DNA of 40,000 nt from Zeimonas sediminis (GCF_023721795.1 NZ_JAMQYE010000001.1:2351671-2391670), one strand, 5' to 3'; counted from the stretch's first letter, positions 9,484 to 32,058 are shown. Program-made: numbers and translations. Notes: generated from the sequence alone by a model not told the origin.

Positions 9484-10284
9484 TCAGGCCTTCCGGCGCT
9501 TTCCTGGCACCGCCGGCTCGACCACCCGCTCCAGCCTGCCCAGCGCGGCGTCGAAGCGGCGCAGTCGCTCGTCCTCGCCCTCGTCCGCCCGGACACCCAC
9601 GCCGCCGAGCACCACGGCGAGAATCTGGTCGGCCAGCGTCTCGACGTCGAGCTCCCCTTCCCCCGACAGGTAGCGCCAGGCATGGTGCTCGATGCACCCG
9701 AAGATCATGTCGCGGACCAGCCGGACCGGCGTGTCCCGCCTGAGCTCGCCCTTGGCGACCCCTTCCTCGATCGTCCTGCGCAGGAATGCCGAGTAGCGCC
9801 GGTTCAGGTCGCCGATGACCGCCTGGTACTCCTGGTCGTCGGTCCGCAGTTCGCGGATGATCAGCCGCATCAGGCCGGGGTCGTCGCGCAGCGCCCGCAG
9901 GTGCGACGAGATCAGGAAGCGCAGCCGGCTGCGCACCGAGCCGATCGCCGCGCACTCGCGCTCGAGTTCGGCGATCGTCTTCTCGTACCAGTCCGAGACC
10001 ACGCGCGTCAGCAGCTCGCGCTTGGACCGGAAGTACCGATAGATGTTGCCCTCGACGACGCCCACACGCTCGGCCACCTCGGCGATCGTCGCCGCCTCGT
10101 AGCCGACGCTCGCGAAGGTCTGCTGCGCTGCGGCGAGGATCGCCTCGTAGCGCTCGGCCTTCGGCAGGCGCCGCCGGACCGGGGCCGCGGCCGGCCCGCC
10201 CGGCCCGGCCGATCCGCCCGCCCCACCCGGCGCGCGATCCGCGCCGTTGCTTGCCTCGCCGTTTCGTTGCGCGCCGCTTGCCAT
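9484..10284 (-). CDS. TetR/AcrR family transcriptional regulator
   Basis: Start at ATG 10282-10284 within a longer shadow-extended ORF. The HTH reads ILAAAQQTFASVGYEAATIAEVAERVGVVEGNIYRYFRSKRELL. Confidence 0.85.
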   Translation of the reverse strand: MASGAQRNGEASNGADRAPGGAGGSAGPGGPAAAPVRRRLPKAERYEAILAAAQQTFASVGYEAATIAEVAERVGVVEGNIYRYFRSKRELLTRVVSDWYEKTIAELERECAAIGSVRSRLRFLISSHLRALRDDPGLMRLIIRELRTDDQEYQAVIGDLNRRYSAFLRRTIEEGVAKGELRRDTPVRLVRDMIFGCIEHHAWRYLSGEGELDVETLADQILAVVLGGVGVRADEGEDERLRRFDAALGRLERVVEPAVPGKRRKA

Positions 10285-20869: not shown

Positions 20870-21118
20870 GGGCCCGACTGGAGATCAAGAGACGTCGTCG
20901 CGCCGCCCGCCTGATGCTCGCGGGACCACGTGGGTACCGCCCTCTGGGCGGCTGCGATCGTCGCATGTGGCCAGGGCACCCATCGGTAGGCCTCTGAAGC
21001 GCCTAGCCTGTAGTTACTAATCCGTTTGTTCAGACTTCGTCCCGCAGTTATTGGCCAAGTCAGAAGCGCATCAGTTACACTAATCGGAATCGATTACTCT
21101 GCTTGTGAAACTGCTGCG

Positions 21119-22057
21119 ATGTCCGGTGACTATGTCGTGGTCACAAACTGCACCGCGCGCAAGCGGGCCGGTGCTCCGCTGGTCCGCTTCGACCCGAAGC
21201 CATCGGCCGCCGCGCTCTCCGAGATCGTCGAGGAATGGCGTTCGGCGCTGCGTTCACAACCCGTGCGCTTGCCTGCGAAGGAGCTCTATGTCGGCCGCTC
21301 GATCAGCGAGGCGAAGTGCGTTGCTCAACAATTGCGATGTTCGCTCTTCGTCGTGTCCGCCGGCCTCGGACTGGTCGAAGAAGATGAGATGGTGCCGGGC
21401 TACGACCTTTCCGCCGCTGGCGCCACCTCCGGCTTGACGCCGGTGTTGGCCCGTCACGGCGCATCCGTCGGCGAGTGGTGGAACACCCTAACTGACGGCC
21501 GCGGATTGCGCTGGTTGCTTCAGCGCGCCTCGGGAGCAGTCGTTCTCCTGGCACTGCCTACGGACTATCTTCGACTCGTCAAGGGGGAACTGCAGGAAAT
21601 GCAGCCCGGCGAGATCTCTCGGCTTCGTGTACTTACATCCGAAGCTGGTCGTAGGGAGTTAGCCACTCTCCCCGCTTTACCAGTGATGCCTTATGACGAC
21701 CGACTGGAGTCGATTCCTGGCCTTGCGGGAACTCGGTCGGACTTTCCTCAACGTGCCCTCCGTCACTTCACCGAGCGCCTTGAAGCTCACAGGCTACCAG
21801 CAGACGTGGCTACCCGAGAGGTGCTGCTCGCCTTGGCTAGATGCGAACACCGAGTTCTCCCGCAGCGAGCACGACTGAACGACGAGGAGATTTGCGGCCT
21901 AATCCGCAGCGGTTGGCCGACGTTCGGCGGGAACAGCGCACGACTATTACGCCATCTCCGAGACGACCACAAAGTCGCGTGCGAGCAGGGGCGCTTCGCT
22001 GCCTTGCGGCGCCGCGTCCAACAGGAACTCGTTGAGAGCTCTGCTGCCTCAGGGTGA
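21119..22057 (+). CDS. uncharacterised protein, first gene of the deazaguanine-modification operon (N-terminus reminiscent of DUF6884-type domains)
   Basis: Start placed at ATG 21119 within ORF 21026..22057. YVVVTNCTARKR...AKELYVGRSISEAK...LFVVSAGLGLVEEDEMVPGYD resembles the CSxxK / elY / ilSAkyGL / PYD pattern I recall for DUF6884. The C-terminal ~130 aa is unrecognised. It ends 4 nt before the next gene. Confidence 0.6.
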   Translation: MSGDYVVVTNCTARKRAGAPLVRFDPKPSAAALSEIVEEWRSALRSQPVRLPAKELYVGRSISEAKCVAQQLRCSLFVVSAGLGLVEEDEMVPGYDLSAAGATSGLTPVLARHGASVGEWWNTLTDGRGLRWLLQRASGAVVLLALPTDYLRLVKGELQEMQPGEISRLRVLTSEAGRRELATLPALPVMPYDDRLESIPGLAGTRSDFPQRALRHFTERLEAHRLPADVATREVLLALARCEHRVLPQRARLNDEEICGLIRSGWPTFGGNSARLLRHLRDDHKVACEQGRFAALRRRVQQELVESSAASG

Positions 22058-22061
22058 CAAC

Positions 22062-23204
22062 ATGGCAACTTCAAAGAAGGGAAGGGAAATTGTCATTCGC
22101 GCTCTGCGGACAAGGCAGGGCCCGGGTCTAGACGTCTACGCATTCTTCATTCGCGGCTCGGACATCATTCGCGTGGCCGACATTTCGCGTATCGGACGAG
22201 ACGAACAAGAAGGACTGAAAGGCTTTCAGCGACCGGAGATCCGCACTCATGTGCGCAGCATCGTGGAGTATCTCAATCAAGGCAGCGTGCTGTTTCCGAA
22301 CGCCATTATCCTTGCCCTTTCGCCCGAGGTTCATTTCGCCGCGTCCCGCGGCACCCGTCCGTCCGGTGACGAAGGCATCGCCCAGAGCGGCACCTTGACC
22401 ATCCCGATCTATGAAGAGGGGCGGCGCGTAGCTTGGATCGTTGACGGTCAGCAACGCTCGCTCGCCCTCGCACAGACAGAACGGAAAGACATCTCCGTTC
22501 CCGTCGTTGGGTTCGTTTCCGACAGCCTGGAAGTCCAACGCGAGCAGTTCATCCTCGTTAACAAAGCGAAGCCTCTACCCACGCGTCTCATTAACGAGTT
22601 GCTGCCCGAGACGCGGTCAGTGCTTCTCCCACGGGAACTCAGTGTTCGGCGAGTGCCTGCGGAATTGTGCGGCCTTCTCAACAGAGACCCTGCATCGCCA
22701 TTCTTCGGGCTCATCAAGCGCCCGTCCGATGACTCTCGCGACCGCAATTCTGTCGTCACCGACACGGCGGTTATAAACGTCATCAAGAACAGCATGAACA
22801 ATCCACTGGGCGCCTTGGCCACCTTCCGCCTTAGCTCGAACGGGCGCGATGGCGTCGATGTCGAAAGCATGTACGCCCTATTGGTGACTTTCTGGTCGGC
22901 GGTAAAAGTTGTGTTTCCGGACGCGTGGGGCCGTGACCCGCGCCATAGCCGCCTGATGCACTCCGCGGGCATCGAAGGAATGGGCGTGCTAATGGACCGC
23001 ATCTACGCACGGCTTCAGCCCAGCGCCGACGTTAAAGCCGTCGAGAGCGAATTGCGTAGGGTCGCGCCCTACTGCCGCTGGACAAAGGGTGTCTGGGATA
23101 GCCTCGGGCTGGCGTGGAACGAAATCCAGAGTACGCCGCGCGATATTCGACGTCTGCAGAATGCACTGGTCCAGGCCTACTCGGCAGCAGGGGCCGCGCG
23201 TTGA
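22062..23204 (+). CDS. DGQHR-domain (DndB/DpdB-like, ParB-fold) protein, paralog 1
   Basis: 380 aa from ATG 22062. Motifs present: LKGFQRPEIRTHVRSIVEYL, FPNAIILAL, WIVDGQQRSLAL, QFILVNKAKPLP. Confidence 0.8.
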   Translation: MATSKKGREIVIRALRTRQGPGLDVYAFFIRGSDIIRVADISRIGRDEQEGLKGFQRPEIRTHVRSIVEYLNQGSVLFPNAIILALSPEVHFAASRGTRPSGDEGIAQSGTLTIPIYEEGRRVAWIVDGQQRSLALAQTERKDISVPVVGFVSDSLEVQREQFILVNKAKPLPTRLINELLPETRSVLLPRELSVRRVPAELCGLLNRDPASPFFGLIKRPSDDSRDRNSVVTDTAVINVIKNSMNNPLGALATFRLSSNGRDGVDVESMYALLVTFWSAVKVVFPDAWGRDPRHSRLMHSAGIEGMGVLMDRIYARLQPSADVKAVESELRRVAPYCRWTKGVWDSLGLAWNEIQSTPRDIRRLQNALVQAYSAAGAAR

Positions 23205-24493
23205 AGTTCCTCTATTCCGACACCCAGGATTACGTCGACCCAAAGTACGACTTCCTTAACGACCGCCCGAACCCAAAGCGTGAACGGTACTGGAACGACG
23301 CCTACGCGCATGAACTCATGCGCGAGGCACCCTACGACGGCCTCCTTGTGGCTATGAGCGCAGTGCGCCAAGCCGAGGGCGTCGCTTCGTCGAAAGTGCG
23401 CTACTCGACAGCCGAAGAGCAGCGAATGCTGCGCATCGGCGCCCGAAAGTACCTGCGCTTCGATGGGCCGAAGTTCAAGGATCTGATGCTGATGGGGGAT
23501 TGCGGTGCATTCGCGTACGCGGAGCACCCCCAACCCGCCTACTCGCCAGAGGAAGTGGTCGAGTTCTACCTGGACGCCGAGTTCACACACGGGGTCTCGC
23601 CTGACCACATCATCTTTGAGTGCGACTTGGAGAATCCGCCAGCGAGCGCTATGCCCGAGGCTCAGCGGCGATTTGAGATCACGCTGGAGAACGCCCAAGA
23701 GTTCATCAAACTCGTCCACCAGGAGGGTGACTTCTTCGAGCCAATGGGTGCCGTTCAGGGTTGGTCGCCGCAGAGCATGGCCGACGCTGCCGACAAACTC
23801 GTCAAGATGGGATACGGCTACTTGGCAATCGGCGGACTCGTTCCACTGAAAGTAGACGTTATCAAAACGGTGCTGGAGGCCATCAGGAACAAGATCGGCC
23901 CGGAGCCAAGGCTTCACCTGCTCGGCTTTGCGAAGGCTGATCATATTCATCAGTTCGTCCGCTACGGCATTACCAGTTTCGACTCGACCTCGCCGCTTAT
24001 CCGTGCCTTTAAGGACGACAAGGCCAATTACTACATCGAGAACGGCGAAGGCGGTTTGGACTACTACACTGCAATCCGCATCCCACAGGCTCTCGAGAAC
24101 AGCCGACTGATGCAGGGCGTCAAGCGCGGTTCGTTCAGCGCTGAAGACCTTGCCAAGCGAGAACGGGTCGCCCTTAAAGCGTTACGCGACTTCGATCAAG
24201 AGCGGGGCAGTATCCAGGGGACCGTGGATGCCGTAATGGACTATCACCAGTTCCTAGTCTTGGGTGAAGGGGGCGACGAGAGCGCTCACGCCAAGGCGTT
24301 GTCCAAGATCCGCGAGCGCGTGCAGCGCACACTCGAGGCCCGCCCGTGGAAACGGTGCGATTGCGCAATCTGCGAGGCCGTGGGCGTGGAAGTCATCATC
24401 TTTCGTTCCAGCAACCGGAACAAGCGACGTGGATTCCACAACCTTGGCGTTTATCACCGACACCTGAAGAGAACCCTGGAGCATTCCGCGTGA
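23201..24493 (+). CDS. dpdA: DpdA-type (TgtA5) DNA-guanine transglycosylase
   Basis: Start placed at TTG 23201, which overlaps the upstream stop (TTGA) and is preceded by AGCAGGGG. This gives MKFLYSDTQDYVDPKYDF..., a DpdA-like N-terminus. TIM-barrel-like segments are present: GYGYLAIGGLVPL, LHLLGFA, TSFDSTSP. The C-terminal TGT-type zinc motif is CDCAIC-x22-H. An upstream ATG at 23114 is an alternative start. Confidence 0.8.
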   Translation: MKFLYSDTQDYVDPKYDFLNDRPNPKRERYWNDAYAHELMREAPYDGLLVAMSAVRQAEGVASSKVRYSTAEEQRMLRIGARKYLRFDGPKFKDLMLMGDCGAFAYAEHPQPAYSPEEVVEFYLDAEFTHGVSPDHIIFECDLENPPASAMPEAQRRFEITLENAQEFIKLVHQEGDFFEPMGAVQGWSPQSMADAADKLVKMGYGYLAIGGLVPLKVDVIKTVLEAIRNKIGPEPRLHLLGFAKADHIHQFVRYGITSFDSTSPLIRAFKDDKANYYIENGEGGLDYYTAIRIPQALENSRLMQGVKRGSFSAEDLAKRERVALKALRDFDQERGSIQGTVDAVMDYHQFLVLGEGGDESAHAKALSKIRERVQRTLEARPWKRCDCAICEAVGVEVIIFRSSNRNKRRGFHNLGVYHRHLKRTLEHSA

Positions 24494-25563
24494 GCGTCTA
24501 TCAATACTCTGCAATCCGAGCACGCCAGGCTGCGGAGCATGACGTCTTCGTCTTCGCTGCGAACCCCAAAGAGGTACTGGAATTCGCGCAGATCGAACGC
24601 GTTGGACGCTCGGACGATGGGCAACTCAAGGGATTTCAGCGGCATCAGATCGCATCGCATATCCGCGATATCCGAGACTATCTGAGCCGCGCAGATGCGC
24701 TTCTGCCCAACGCTGTGATTGTGGCCTTTATCGAGGGGGTGACAGTCAGGGACGTCGGCGACGGGCGGCTGGAAGTGTCAATTGACGCCCGCAAGACCCC
24801 TCCAGGATTTGTCGTCGACGGACAGCAACGCCTAACTGCGCTTTCTGGGCTGGACAAGCCAGATTTCCAGGTGTTCGTATCTGCCGTCGTGTGCAAGAAC
24901 TACGACGAGCTTCGCCAGCAGTTCGTACTCATCAACAGCACTCGGCCGCTCCCCAAGACCCTGATTTACGAGCTACTGCCAACTGTTGAGGGCCTGCCGC
25001 AGCGGTACACGTCGCGCCGCTTTGCGGCCAGGGTGGTAGAGCGACTCAATTTCACCGGCGGCCGGGCACTGCGCGGCGAGATTCGTCAACACACCAATCC
25101 ATCCGGTGTCATCAGTGACACGGCCATGCAGAAACTCGTGATGAACTCGGCCGCGCACGGCGCTATCCGCGAGTTCATCCAATACGAAGATCGTGAAGAT
25201 CGTGCCGTCTCCCTAATCAACGAGTTCTTCGAAGCTGTAGCCACGGTATTTGGCGGCCAGTGGGTCGGCATGAGTCCACGCGTTTCGCGTCTTCGTCATG
25301 GAGCGGGGATCGTCGCCATGGGCTTTGTGATGGATCTGCTCCACTCCTCCCAGGGGGCGACCACCAAAGATGGCTTCGTGCCCGGGCTCGAATTGCTCAA
25401 ACCCTTTACGGCTTGGACCTCTGGCACTTGGAAGATGGACGACTGCGAGTTTGTCTGGAACGACATTCAGAACACTCCCTCCGACATCGACCTCCTTACG
25501 CGTCATCTCGTGTCAGCCACAAAGCGGCAGCTTCGCAAACTGCGTCGGGCCGCCAACGCTTGA
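24490..25563 (+). CDS. DGQHR-domain (DndB/DpdB-like) protein, paralog 2
   Basis: Start placed at GTG 24490, which overlaps the dpdA stop (GTGA) with GGAG 10-13 nt upstream. Motifs present: LKGFQRHQIASHIRDIRDYL, LPNAVIVAF, FVVDGQQRLTAL, QFVLINSTRPLP. It is colinear with paralog 1. Confidence 0.8.
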   Translation: MSVYQYSAIRARQAAEHDVFVFAANPKEVLEFAQIERVGRSDDGQLKGFQRHQIASHIRDIRDYLSRADALLPNAVIVAFIEGVTVRDVGDGRLEVSIDARKTPPGFVVDGQQRLTALSGLDKPDFQVFVSAVVCKNYDELRQQFVLINSTRPLPKTLIYELLPTVEGLPQRYTSRRFAARVVERLNFTGGRALRGEIRQHTNPSGVISDTAMQKLVMNSAAHGAIREFIQYEDREDRAVSLINEFFEAVATVFGGQWVGMSPRVSRLRHGAGIVAMGFVMDLLHSSQGATTKDGFVPGLELLKPFTAWTSGTWKMDDCEFVWNDIQNTPSDIDLLTRHLVSATKRQLRKLRRAANA

Positions 25564-25569
25564 ATAGTC

Positions 25570-26277
25570 ATGAGCACTTCCGCACTCGTCTTGTTCTCCG
25601 GCGGTCAGGATTCCGCCACGTGCCTTGCATGGGCGTTGGACCGTTATGACTTCGTCGAGACGGTGGGCTTCGACTATGGTCAACGGCACAGGGTTGAAAT
25701 GGAGTGCCGAGAGATCTTTCGAAGCGAACTGCGGAGTCACTTCCCTGCATGGGGCGGGAGACTTGGCGATGACCACCTTCTGGATCTAGGACTTCTTAGC
25801 CGAATTAGCGACACAGCACTCACCGCCGAGAAGCAGATTGAGTTCGACGAATCAGGGCTTCCGAATACGTTTGTTCCAGGCCGCAATCTCTTGTTCTTCA
25901 CTCTGGCCGCCGCGATTGCCTACCGTCGCGGCCACAAGATCCTCGTGGGCGGGATGTGCGAGACTGACTATTCGGGCTATCCGGACTGCCGCGACGACAC
26001 GCTCAAAGCTCTTCAGGTAACACTGAATCTTGGTTTGAACTCTCGCCTTGTCGTTGAGACCCCGCTTATGTGGATCGACAAGGCCCGCACGTGGACACTC
26101 GCCCAACAACTTGGCGGAGACGCGCTAGTTGCCCTCATACGAGAGAAGACGCACACCTGCTACCTGGGCGATCACGAGACTTGGCATGACTGGGGCTATG
26201 GCTGCGGGACTTGCGCGGCCTGCGAATTGCGTCTCAGAGGCTATGAGGCATTCGCCCGCGAGGAGGGAGCCAAATGA
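25570..26277 (+). CDS. queC: 7-cyano-7-deazaguanine (preQ0) synthase QueC
   Basis: 235 aa. PP-loop [12 protein letters not shown]; also [18 protein letters not shown]. The C-terminal zinc-site cysteines are C...CGTCAAC. Confidence 0.9.
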
Positions 26278-27371
26278 ACCAACCGGTTATTGTGACCCAG
26301 GCGACGGCGGGGTTTGAGGCGGCGCGCCAAGTGGACGTATTACCCGAAGGACATCGGTGTCGCTCACTGCACGGCCATAGCTTTCAGGCCACTGTGTTCG
26401 CTGAACTGCCAGAAGGCTTTGCCGCTTATCCAGGCGGCGAAGTCGACGCACTTAGCGCCCGTCTCGACGAGTGCGTGTCTCAGCTGAACTATGCGTATCT
26501 CAATCGTGTGATGCCGCAACCTACCGATGAGAACATCGCGCGATTCCTCCGTGAACAGTTGAGGATTCCGGGTATCGATCGTGTCGCGATCCAGAGTACG
26601 ACAATGCAGGGAGTGGATCTGAATCGGGAGGGACAGGCCCACGTGTGGCGGCGATTCCGATTTCAAGCAGCACACCGACTTCCGAACGTACCGCTAGGGC
26701 ACAAGTGCGGCCGAATGCATGGCCACGGTTTTGAGGCGATCATCCACGCAAACCAAGACCTTGGAACTCGTCCATTAAGCACTGACTACGACCACCTTGA
26801 TTCCGTGTGGGCACCGTTGCACGCGCAACTTAACTACCAGTGCCTAAATGAAATCGAGGGCCTCGAAAACCCAACTAGCGAGAACCTGGCCGGGTGGATC
26901 TGGCGGCAACTGAAGCCCGCACTGCCCGAGCTATCTTGGGTGACCGTTTTTGAGACGGCATCTTGTGGTGCGCACTTCGACGGCGAGAACTACCGCATCT
27001 GGAAGGAATTCACACTCGATAGCGCCGTGCGTTGCGAGCGCGCCCCGGAAGGCTCAGATCGTAACCGTACGCACGGTCACACTTATACGCTTCGACTCCA
27101 CCTTGACGCACCACTGAACGAGATCCTCGGTTGGACCGTCGACTTCGGTGACGTCAAGACCATCTTCGACCCAATCTTCAAGTCTATCGACCACCAGATG
27201 CTCAATGGGCTCCCGGGATTGGCTGACGGGAACGCGGCCAGCGTGGCACGATGGATTTTGGATCAGGCCCGACCAAAACTTCCTCACCTCTCCCGCGTCG
27301 ATCTTCACGAAACCCCCGGCACCGGTTGCCTCATAGCAGATAACCTCGACGGTCCGACAATGCCGGTCTGA
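26274..27371 (+). CDS. queD: triple-tandem QueD / 6-carboxytetrahydropterin synthase (PTPS-fold) protein
   Basis: 365 aa, ATGA overlap with queC. It has three ~115-aa modules (about aa 8-118, 124-238, 241-355). Module 2 is close to E. coli QueD: [26 protein letters not shown]...[15 protein letters not shown]...FETASCGA. Modules 1 and 3 are degenerate copies. Confidence 0.8.
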
Positions 27372-30498: not shown

Positions 30499-32058
30499 TC
30501 ACCTGTCGGATGCGAGGAACCTGGCCAACACCACCATCGCCCACGTATCCATCGCGCAGTACCTCCTCAGCGCCCCCTCCAGCTCCGCCCGCCTCGCCTC
30601 GCCGGTCTCCGGGGCGATCGCCTCCAGGTACGCCGCCTGCGCAGCCGCGCCGTGCTGCACTTCGTCGAGCAGGCCGTAGTCGACCCCGCCGGGGATCGTG
30701 GGCAGCACCGCCTTGATCGAGCGCGAGCCGCACATGTCGGGGTGGTAGTAGTGCGCGCGCACCAGCGGCAGCAGGTCCACCAGGCGCCGGGCGATCCGGT
30801 TGAGCGGCCTTGCCAGGTCGGGGAACTCGCCGGCGAGCGCGCGCAGCACGCTGCGCTCGAAGCCGGCGTTGTAGACGATGACCGGGCCTGCGGCCGGCAG
30901 CTCGCGCGCGAGCGCTTCGGCGCAGGCGCGGCGCGGGTCGGCGCCGCTCAGGTCCAGGAAGGCGGCTTCGCGCACCTGGCCTTCGTCCGACGGCCCTTCT
31001 TCTGATGACCCTTCTCCCGGCGGCCCTTCCTCGATCTGGCACGACCACTGGAACGGCAGCTGCTGGTAGGGCCGGGTACCGGGCCACTGGGGCACGGCGA
31101 AGCCGATCGTTTCGAAGTCCAGGTAGGCGCGCGGCCAGCCCAGCCCGGCGAGCTTCTCGGCGGCCTGCGGCTCGAGCAGCGGCGCGCCTTCGCGGGTGAC
31201 GCGGGCGATCATGGCCAGCTCGGGGTCTTCGATGCGCCCGGGCGGTACGCTGCGCAGGTCATCAAAGCCTTCGGCCAGCAGCTGGGCGGCCAGCTTCTTG
31301 CCCTTGGTATTGGGCAGCAGCGTGACCGGGTACTCGGGCTGCGGGCCCGCTAGACGCGCGCAGTGCGCCTGGAACGGGCAGTCGAAGGGCGAGCGGCACT
31401 GCTCGCCCATCGCGATGGCGGGCTCGTCGCCCTGCAGGATGCGTTCGGCCTCGCGCACCCAGCGCGGCACCTGGTCGAGCAGCGGCTCGGTGGCGGCGGT
31501 GAGGTCCTCGCGCGCGAACAGGCCCGCGTAGTCGGAGCCGCCGGGCCAGATCCAGCTGGTGTCCACGTGCCACTGCTCCACGCCTGCCAGCGGCGCCAGG
31601 GGGCCGGCCGCCCAGGAGTCGTCCTTCAGCTGCCCCTGCAGCACCCAGCGCTGGATCGCCACGTCGGCCAGGTGGTAGTCGCGCACCGAGCTGGTCGACT
31701 TGACCTCGGCGAGCCGCCAGCCGCCGGGCGCGGGCAGCAGCAGGTCGGCGCGCACCAGCACGCCGTCGCGCTCGAAGGTGGCCTCGTAGAGCGGGCGGCG
31801 CGGCGCGGCGGCGAGCAGCTCGCGGGTGAGGCGCAGCGCCTCGGCCAGGTCGGGCCGGTCGGTGCCGGGCACGCGCGGGTCGATCAGCGTGCCGCCGGGC
31901 GCCAGCGTGCGCGCGACCTCGCCCACCCGGTGGCCGGCGGCGAATACCAGCTGGGTGACGGCCGAGTCTTCGCGCAGCTCGGGGTGGCGGACCTGCAGCC
32001 ACAGGCGTTTGGGGCACTGCTGCAGGTCTTGCAGGCGGGATTTGGAGAGGCGGGGCAT
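30499..32058 (-). CDS. DUF2779-type protein: Cas4/RecB-like PD-(D/E)XK nuclease with Fe-S cysteines fused to an RNase-H-fold exonuclease-like domain
   Basis: 519 aa. The N-terminus SKSRLQDLQQCPKRLWL plus ...RADLLL...WRLAEVKSTS and CRSPFDCPFQAHC gives four Cys, as in Cas4/AddB. The C-terminal half reads YLDFETIGFAVP...IVYNAGFERSVL...YCAMDTWAMV. Confidence 0.7.
   Translation of the reverse strand: MPRLSKSRLQDLQQCPKRLWLQVRHPELREDSAVTQLVFAAGHRVGEVARTLAPGGTLIDPRVPGTDRPDLAEALRLTRELLAAAPRRPLYEATFERDGVLVRADLLLPAPGGWRLAEVKSTSSVRDYHLADVAIQRWVLQGQLKDDSWAAGPLAPLAGVEQWHVDTSWIWPGGSDYAGLFAREDLTAATEPLLDQVPRWVREAERILQGDEPAIAMGEQCRSPFDCPFQAHCARLAGPQPEYPVTLLPNTKGKKLAAQLLAEGFDDLRSVPPGRIEDPELAMIARVTREGAPLLEPQAAEKLAGLGWPRAYLDFETIGFAVPQWPGTRPYQQLPFQWSCQIEEGPPGEGSSEEGPSDEGQVREAAFLDLSGADPRRACAEALARELPAAGPVIVYNAGFERSVLRALAGEFPDLARPLNRIARRLVDLLPLVRAHYYHPDMCGSRSIKAVLPTIPGGVDYGLLDEVQHGAAAQAAYLEAIAPETGEARRAELEGALRRYCAMDTWAMVVLARFLASDR

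Follow-up and report, generated by a model that had tools for sequence, protein, structure and literature searches.

QueD3, a conserved protein of three fused QueD-type modules with its active-site residues divided between two of them

In this study, we describe queD3, an open reading frame (ORF) of Zeimonas sediminis (Burkholderiaceae) encoding a protein in which three PTPS-type tunnelling folds (T-folds) are joined in a single chain and the residues of the QueD active site are distributed over the second and the third of them. The ORF lies in a stretch of 40,000 nucleotides (GCF_023721795.1, NZ_JAMQYE010000001.1:2351671-2391670), hereafter called the window. Its product is 100% identical to WP_272485773.1, which already carries the NCBI label '6-carboxytetrahydropterin synthase'. 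Judging from the architecture of the chain, the pattern and conservation of its residues and its gene context, QueD3 is probably a functional 6-carboxytetrahydropterin (CPH4) synthase made of three joined T-folds, in which module 2 (M2) would provide the catalytic core and module 3 (M3) the partner residues, and which would form a head-to-head dimer with two composite active sites. T-fold enzymes are sorted in the literature as unimodular or bimodular, with QueD, which catalyses a step towards the 7-deazaguanine base preQ0, as a unimodular homohexamer. No QueD or T-fold described as trimodular, tandem or triplicated turned up in a literature search, with the reservation that an earlier remark is possible in the E. 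coli QueD structure paper or in the paper on COG0720 promiscuity. Likewise, the main text of a survey of 34,387 PTPS sequences, which reports QueD and QueD2 clusters, contains no three-module form. The layout is thus conserved and apparently undescribed for the QueD fold.

The Pfam model PF01242 (PTPS) matches the whole QueD3 protein in three stretches (190.1 bits, E 1.4e-56), and the NCBIfam QueD model TIGR03367 likewise matches it in three stretches. When each third of the protein was scanned alone, module 1 (M1), M2 and M3 all exceeded the PF01242 gathering score of 22.4 bits (Table 2), in agreement with the initial annotation, which had read three fused PTPS-fold modules from this ORF. Mutual identity of the three modules is only 20-25%. 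M1, M2 and M3 were aligned to the QueD sequences of E. coli (4ntm) and Pseudomonas aeruginosa (2oba), and canonical positions are given in E. coli numbering (Table 1). The residue and motif calls made for each module in the initial annotation are all correct on this alignment, and so is its statement that no single module carries the full QueD residue set; a reading with three fully active modules is rejected. Only in M2 is the Cx3HGH motif combined with the N-terminal third His as zinc ligand. M1 has Cx3HGH in this protein together with Arg at the His16 position, and M3 lacks the Cys and the first His. The further claim that the losses in the modules complement each other stands for M2, which keeps His, Cys, HGH, PTSE and Glu, as against M3, which keeps GWxxDF and the Asp-His dyad. 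It does not stand for M1, which to judge from the alignment contributes no canonical catalytic residue.

Table 1. Residues of QueD3 at the canonical positions of E. coli QueD
Position	M1	M2	M3
His16	Arg18	His134	Val252
Cys27	Cys29	Cys145	Arg263
His31/His33	retained (His33-Gly-His35)	retained (His149-Gly-His151)	retained
GWIIDF	absent	absent	GWTVDF (Gly286-Trp-Thr-Val-Asp290-Phe291)
Asp70-His71	Asn72-Tyr73	Asn187-Tyr188	Asp306-His307
ENPTSE	PQPTDE (Pro-Thr-Asp85)	ENPTSE (Pro200-Thr-Ser-Glu203)	ADGNAA
Glu110	Ser108	Glu227	Glu346

QueD3 belongs to a widespread family. The survey for threefold QueD fusions and their neighbours proposed in the initial annotation was fruitful: a word-indexed search returned at least 120 clusters (90% identity level) of 363-413 aa, most of them 364-366 aa, with 96-100% query coverage and 62-87% identity to the queD3 product. 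When the representatives at 50% identity were searched exhaustively, 113 matched at E <= 1e-30, and about 77 of these are proteins of 315-407 aa that align over most of their length with 33-57% identity. A scan with one genome per species showed that about 70 species of beta- and gammaproteobacteria have the trimodular form, mostly in operons with queC and queE. These include Burkholderiales (among them Roseateles, Pelomonas, Rubrivivax, Paucibacter, Ideonella, Sphaerotilus and Aquabacterium), Chromatiaceae (among them Halochromatium and Lamprobacter), Chromobacteriaceae (among them Chromobacterium, Aquitalea, Vogesella and Crenobacter) as well as Methylophaga and Contendobacter. The phage and plasmid collections searched by protein yielded only unimodular QueDs and no trimodular form.

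Key positions were tabulated in 121 close homologues and in 78 divergent representatives (33-57% identity), and all counts refer to the 78. In M2, the His16 equivalent is kept in 75, Cys in 76, His31 and His33 in 76 each, the residues of Pro-Thr-Ser-Glu in 76, 75, 74 and 78, and the Glu110 equivalent in every representative (78/78). M3 retains Asp and His of the dyad in 76 and 75 sequences and, in the Gly-Trp-x-x-Asp-[Phe/Tyr] motif, Gly in 73, Trp in 76, Asp in 77 and the aromatic residue in 76. The remaining positions of M3 are far less constrained: a mixture of aliphatic residues and Thr occupies the His16 position, the residue at the Cys position varies, the first His of HGH is found in 38 and the His33 equivalent in 68 representatives, and the Glu110 equivalent in only 29. 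At the dyad position of M2, representatives show N-Y, D-H, H-H, D-G and other pairs, with D-H in about a tenth of them. Since an M2 without Asp-His is not universal, this position is simply unconstrained. Three full-length exceptions to the rule of an M2 core plus an M3 dyad were found, and two of them lose both parts together: in P0143 the M2 His is Arg and the dyad His of M3 is Asn, and in P0188 the M2 Cys is Ser and the M3 dyad reads E-E in place of D-H. Because the complementary pieces are conserved family-wide, they are under selection; each chain holds exactly one core set and one partner set, and not the remains of random complementary decay. Mean pairwise identity is 0.30 for M1, the most divergent module, 0.48 for M2 and 0.40 for M3. 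Each of the three module classes forms a clade of its own in a neighbour-joining tree, which indicates a single ancient triplication.

M1 has a signature of its own. Arg occupies the His16 position in 70/78 representatives, and the HGH histidines are kept in 66/78 and 64/78. Asp or Asn (62/78) followed by Tyr (49/78) is found at the dyad position, Asp at the position of Ser85 (68/78) and Ser at that of Glu110 (55/78). The Cys present in M1 of QueD3 is not conserved across the wider family. In QueD3 this pseudo-site consists of Arg18, His33, His35, Asn/Asp72-Tyr73, Asp85 and Ser108, and in the predicted dimer described below it would lie opposite its own copy across the dyad axis. Such a contact of M1 with M1' may explain why the pseudo-site is conserved, and the Arg-centred site may set the register of assembly or bind a ligand.

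The search of 50%-identity representatives also yielded a bimodular PTPS family of 232-236 aa (P0225, P0237, P0238, P0244, P0255 and P0259). Its N-terminal module keeps His16, HGH, GWxxDF and Asp-His and lacks Cys, PTSE and Glu; its C-terminal module keeps His, Cx3HGH, ENPT[S/A]E and Glu, lacks GWxxDF and is variable at the dyad position. This is the division of labour seen between M3 and M2, in the opposite module order. In the neighbour-joining tree the bimodular N-terminal modules group with M3, and the C-terminal modules, together with unimodular QueDs, are closest to M2. Two independent families of multi-module proteins thus separate the same two sets of residues.

An AlphaFold2 (AF2) model computed from a 51-sequence alignment reached a predicted local distance difference test (pLDDT) of 89.9 and a predicted template modelling score (pTM) of 0.89. 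Its secondary structure consists of three bbaabb units, and linkers of 4-5 residues lead from the last strand of one module to the first strand of the next. In T-fold rings, beta1 of one subunit pairs with beta4' of its neighbour. Linkers of hairpin length would thus be what a covalently closed pseudo-trimer requires. Foldseek searches of the PDB returned single PTPS/QueD subunits as module-sized matches (TM-score about 0.3 normalised to the query, TMq, and about 0.9 normalised to the target, TMt), and bimodular uricases as the only multi-module matches (TMq <=0.37). No solved chain with a three-module architecture was found in the PDB by this search, and none covers more than about one third of the model as PTPS. 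M2 is the module closest to solved QueDs (2oba, E 6e-35; 44-48% identity, TMt about 0.89), and the structural alignment gives it 48% identity to the QueD of P. aeruginosa.

In line with a CPH4 synthase function, queD3 is found where such a gene would be expected. Of the 73 loci with queD3, 58 have queE immediately after it and 41 have queC before it. Most genomes have queC-queD3-queE or queD3-queE operons amid unrelated housekeeping genes, with no gene for DNA 7-deazaguanine modification (dpd) within 8 kb; location in a Dpd island, as in the window, is the minority case. The gene is therefore not peculiar to the island studied here; many Burkholderiales, Chromatiaceae and Chromobacteriaceae have it as their QueD gene in ordinary operons. 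Its presence in ordinary queC/queE operons without dpd genes supports an ordinary CPH4 synthase activity. In a tree of QueD3 copies, the Dpd-linked ones are scattered among the housekeeping copies, and hence the islands have recruited the local form of QueD and not invented it.

Taken together with the known mechanism of QueD, these data point to the following model. In E. coli QueD, where a single prime denotes the neighbour in the same ring, His71'' enters the catalytic site from the opposite ring, and the active sites of QueD are said to 'bridge the two rings'; in Acinetobacter baumannii QueD2 (AbQueD2), the metal site likewise receives His68 from the opposite ring. In rat PTPS, His89 from subunit B of the other trimer reportedly belongs to an 'intersubunit catalytic triad'. 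A single QueD3 chain would form the 12-stranded ring that is normally built by three separate QueD subunits. M2 would supply the part of the zinc-bearing subunit, namely the three His ligands, the Cys nucleophile within Cx3HGH, the PTSE loop and the Glu that anchors the pterin. M3 would supply the part of the partner, GWxxDF and the Asp-His dyad, across the ring-ring interface, and M1 would close the ring without taking part in catalysis, with a conserved pseudo-site in which Arg replaces His. Because Asp-His acts from the opposite ring in QueD, a lone pseudo-trimer would be incomplete at its M2 site, and a head-to-head dimer would be needed. Two chains stacked in this manner would bring the Asp-His of M3' to the M2 site. 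The particle would be D3-like, every top-bottom pair being related by a local two-fold axis, and the only exact C2 pairing with this effect would be M2:M3', M3:M2' and M1:M1'. The resulting dimer of about 82 kDa would hold two composite active sites as compared to six per QueD hexamer. M2 would offer its own dyad position to the dead M3' site, which accounts for the drift at that position. The detailed proposal of a trimodular T-fold with a self-closing ring, a C2 dimer, two composite sites, core and partner halves split between M2 and M3 and an Arg pseudo-site in M1 is held with even confidence.

Several points weigh against this model. Ring closure and all distances are taken from topology and pTM. 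The loop of rat PTPS equivalent to PTSE (Thr105/Thr106) may be contributed by the same-ring neighbour; if so, the invariance of PTSE in M2 would be left unexplained. This would conflict with the partition seen in the bimodular family, which speaks for a PTSE loop that works together with the core residues. Moreover, the QueD equivalog cut-off of TIGR03367 (89.25 bits) is passed by the whole of QueD3 (145.7 bits) and not by M1 (33.6 bits), M2 (64.8 bits) or M3 (56.1 bits) alone, so that the protein is called QueD because three sub-threshold module scores sum above the cut-off. Finally, queE was not found in the island of the window, leaving the local pathway incomplete.

Alternatively, QueD3 could act as a monomeric pseudo-trimer in which Asp-His and GWxxDF of M3 complete the M2 site within the same ring, with one active site per chain. 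The two modules are neighbours both in the sequence and in the predicted ring, and the conservation data show only that the two modules cooperate, reading the same in cis and in trans. Still, His71 of E. coli QueD and His68 of AbQueD2 come from the opposite ring, the sites bridge both rings, and T-fold topology would place the catalytic residues at the ring-ring end with the dyad of a same-ring neighbour pointing away; we therefore regard the monomer as unlikely. It is more improbable still that QueD3 has exchanged CPH4 formation for another activity, such as a PTPS reaction of the folate or biopterin type or the synthesis of a new pterin for Dpd. COG0720 is known for its promiscuity and its hard-to-separate subfamilies, and the module scores with TIGR03367 given above would fit such a deviation. 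Yet M2 carries Cx3HGH and not the ExxHGH of PTPS-III, the CxxxxxHGH of PTPS-II or the Cx4HGH of QueD2, its identity to characterised or solved QueDs amounts to 44-48%, and many lineages have queD3 in a fixed place between queC and queE.

Two further explanations would deprive the fusion of any function. A decaying triplication carried as a passenger by a mobile island would fit the position of queD3 in a low-GC island without queE and dpdD-K and the loss of core residues from two of the three modules. It is at odds with the at least 77 clusters at 50% identity in which the length is intact, with the near-invariance of the M2 core and the M3 dyad, with the monophyly of each module class, which points to one ancient triplication, and with the housekeeping-type operons in which queD3 is located. 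The conservation data effectively refute a decaying pseudogene, and we consider this explanation very improbable. The chance that an assembly or frameshift artefact has fused three ordinary queD genes, which the initial annotation had named as a possible undoing of its reading, is negligible: the modules are only 20-25% identical, the ORF runs without inter-module stops or spacers, and isolates, complete genomes and independent metagenomes all have the same protein of 364-366 aa. The artefact is thus refuted by the clusters, the divergence of the modules and the uninterrupted ORF.

In the window, queD3 is the last gene of the order dpdC-dpdB-dpdA-dpdB'-queC-queD3 (Table 2). A Shine-Dalgarno sequence AGGAGG is positioned 7 nt 5' of its ATG, and the stop of queC and the start of queD3 share ATGA, a 4-nt overlap that is identical in three of the loci compared (L002, L003 and L084). 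A scan for promoters and terminators gave no informative result. DpdA, DpdB and DpdC constitute the DNA 7-deazaguanine modification module, which is complete in the window. QueD3 and QueC would feed 7-cyano-7-deazaguanine (preQ0) to DpdA, DpdB and DpdC, with FolE and QueE supplied by other parts of the genome. DpdA has a DpdB paralogue on either side, both above the DpdB equivalog cut-off, and this layout was noted for the window as well as for L001-L003, L010, L011 and L084.

Table 2. Features of the window. For the dpd genes the longest possible ORF is given; matches to the models start 20-50 codons later.
Feature	Position (nt)	Strand	Evidence or remark
MetK-like ORF, 207 aa	20151-20774	+	covers positions 129-304 of 377 of the MetK model only (middle and C-terminal part)
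dpdC	21026-22057	+	PADLOC DpdC 282 bits
dpdB	22032-23204	+	NF041060 DpdB (paralogues 459 and 373 bits)
dpdA	23114-24493	+	NF041059 DpdA 539 bits
dpdB', second dpdB paralogue	24346-25563	+	NF041060 (paralogues 459 and 373 bits)
queC, 7-cyano-7-deazaguanine synthase	25570..26277	+	profile matches
Shine-Dalgarno AGGAGG and queC/queD3 junction	26261..26277	+	read directly from the sequence
queD3, trimodular QueD/PTPS ORF	26274..27371	+	ATG start, 365 aa, TGA stop; ORF read and profile matches
M1, aa 1-119, predicted non-catalytic T-fold	26274..26630	+	PF01242 32.7 bits
M2, aa 120-240, predicted catalytic core module	26631..26993	+	PF01242 90.9 bits
M2 codons Cys145-Gly-Arg-Met-His149-Gly-His151	26706..26726	+	Cx3HGH, signature of QueD-type PTPS-I
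M3, aa 241-365, predicted helper module	26994..27368	+	PF01242 76.3 bits
M3 codons Asp306-His307	27189..27194	+	equivalent to E. coli Asp70-His71
HNH-like protein, 301 aa	27595-28500	-	weak HNH/PtuB-like matches
Third, divergent DGQHR protein, 498 aa	28513-30009	-	DpdB model 58 bits
DUF2779 protein	30499-32058	-	weak Cas4-like N-terminal match

The island has a guanine plus cytosine (GC) content of 52-59% as compared to 70% for the genome. Downstream of queD3, an HNH-like gene and a gene for a third DGQHR protein take the place of queE and dpdD-K of related islands. This layout is shared with an independent metagenome contig (L084) at 87-94% protein identity (94% for the pair itself, at 7463-9910 of L084), and the two genes may represent an alternative effector module for a Dpd-type system. 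In the related islands L001-L003, L010 and L011, queE follows next, and then differing subsets of dpdD, a gene with a phospholipase D (PLD) domain, and DEAD/SNF2 helicases. With queries from L002 and L003, DpdD, PLD, DpdE and DpdF gave no tblastn match in the window, in which the Dpd restriction module was thus not detected. The upstream edge of the low-GC island is occupied by the MetK-like ORF, which has 87% identity to its counterpart in L084 and may be either a shortened gene related to metK or what is left of the insertion site; the DUF2779 gene marks the downstream edge and is also found beside the island in L084. In L001 (Ramlibacter montanisoli), an extra unimodular PTPS gene of 149 aa follows queE (9729-10178), besides the trimodular queD3. 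No queC gene was called between dpdB' and queD3 of that locus, where a tblastn match to QueC persists.

Compared to known systems, the QueDs of E. coli (YgcM; 4NTK, 4NTM, 3QN0) and P. aeruginosa (2OBA) share with M2 the fold and the core of Cx3HGH, His16, Glu110 and PTSE, and E. coli QueD has the pathway neighbours queC and queE in common with queD3. The E. coli enzyme is a homohexamer of unimodular 121-aa subunits with six identical sites, whereas the three diverged modules of a QueD3 chain together hold a single core set and a single Asp-His set. With 365 aa in three modules, the chain thus departs from the family trait of a unimodular homohexamer of about 120 aa. Mammalian PTPS (1GTQ, 3I2B) is reportedly a T-fold dimer of trimers with an inter-subunit Cys/Asp-His triad whose His is donated by the other trimer; it differs from QueD3 in its CxxxxxHGH motif, its product and its unimodular subunits. 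Bimodular T-folds (FolE2/GCYH-IB, type II QueF and urate oxidase) resemble QueD3 in that their tandem modules are specialised and do not all have a full site. They have two modules and build their rings from two chains; QueD3, with three modules, falls outside this class. QueD2, the low-zinc paralogue of A. baumannii, is another alternative architecture for a CPH4 synthase, and its metal site takes a His from the opposite ring. It has Cx4HGH, 190-300 aa with non-T-fold extensions and an octameric assembly, in contrast to the Cx3HGH and the three T-folds of QueD3. Concerning the gene context, the Dpd island of Salmonella Montevideo (dpdA-K) and the window both have adjacent dpdA, dpdB and dpdC with preQ0 genes co-localised, as is the case for about 27% of Dpd islands. 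The Salmonella Montevideo system has a single DpdB, whereas the island of the window has a second dpdB paralogue and lacks queE and dpdD-K.

QueD3 opens no new pathway or mechanism. It does add a third architecture to the classification of T-folds, which so far comprises unimodular and bimodular forms. In addition, it offers a natural dissection of QueD into the residues that act from the zinc-bearing module and those that act from its partner, a distinction normally known only from crystal structures and mixed mutants. For annotation, a dedicated model would be cleaner and would flag the single catalytic module. Since many Burkholderiales, Chromatiaceae and Chromobacteriaceae and several Dpd islands have the trimodular form as their QueD, it bears on the biology of queuosine and 7-deazaguanine in these groups.

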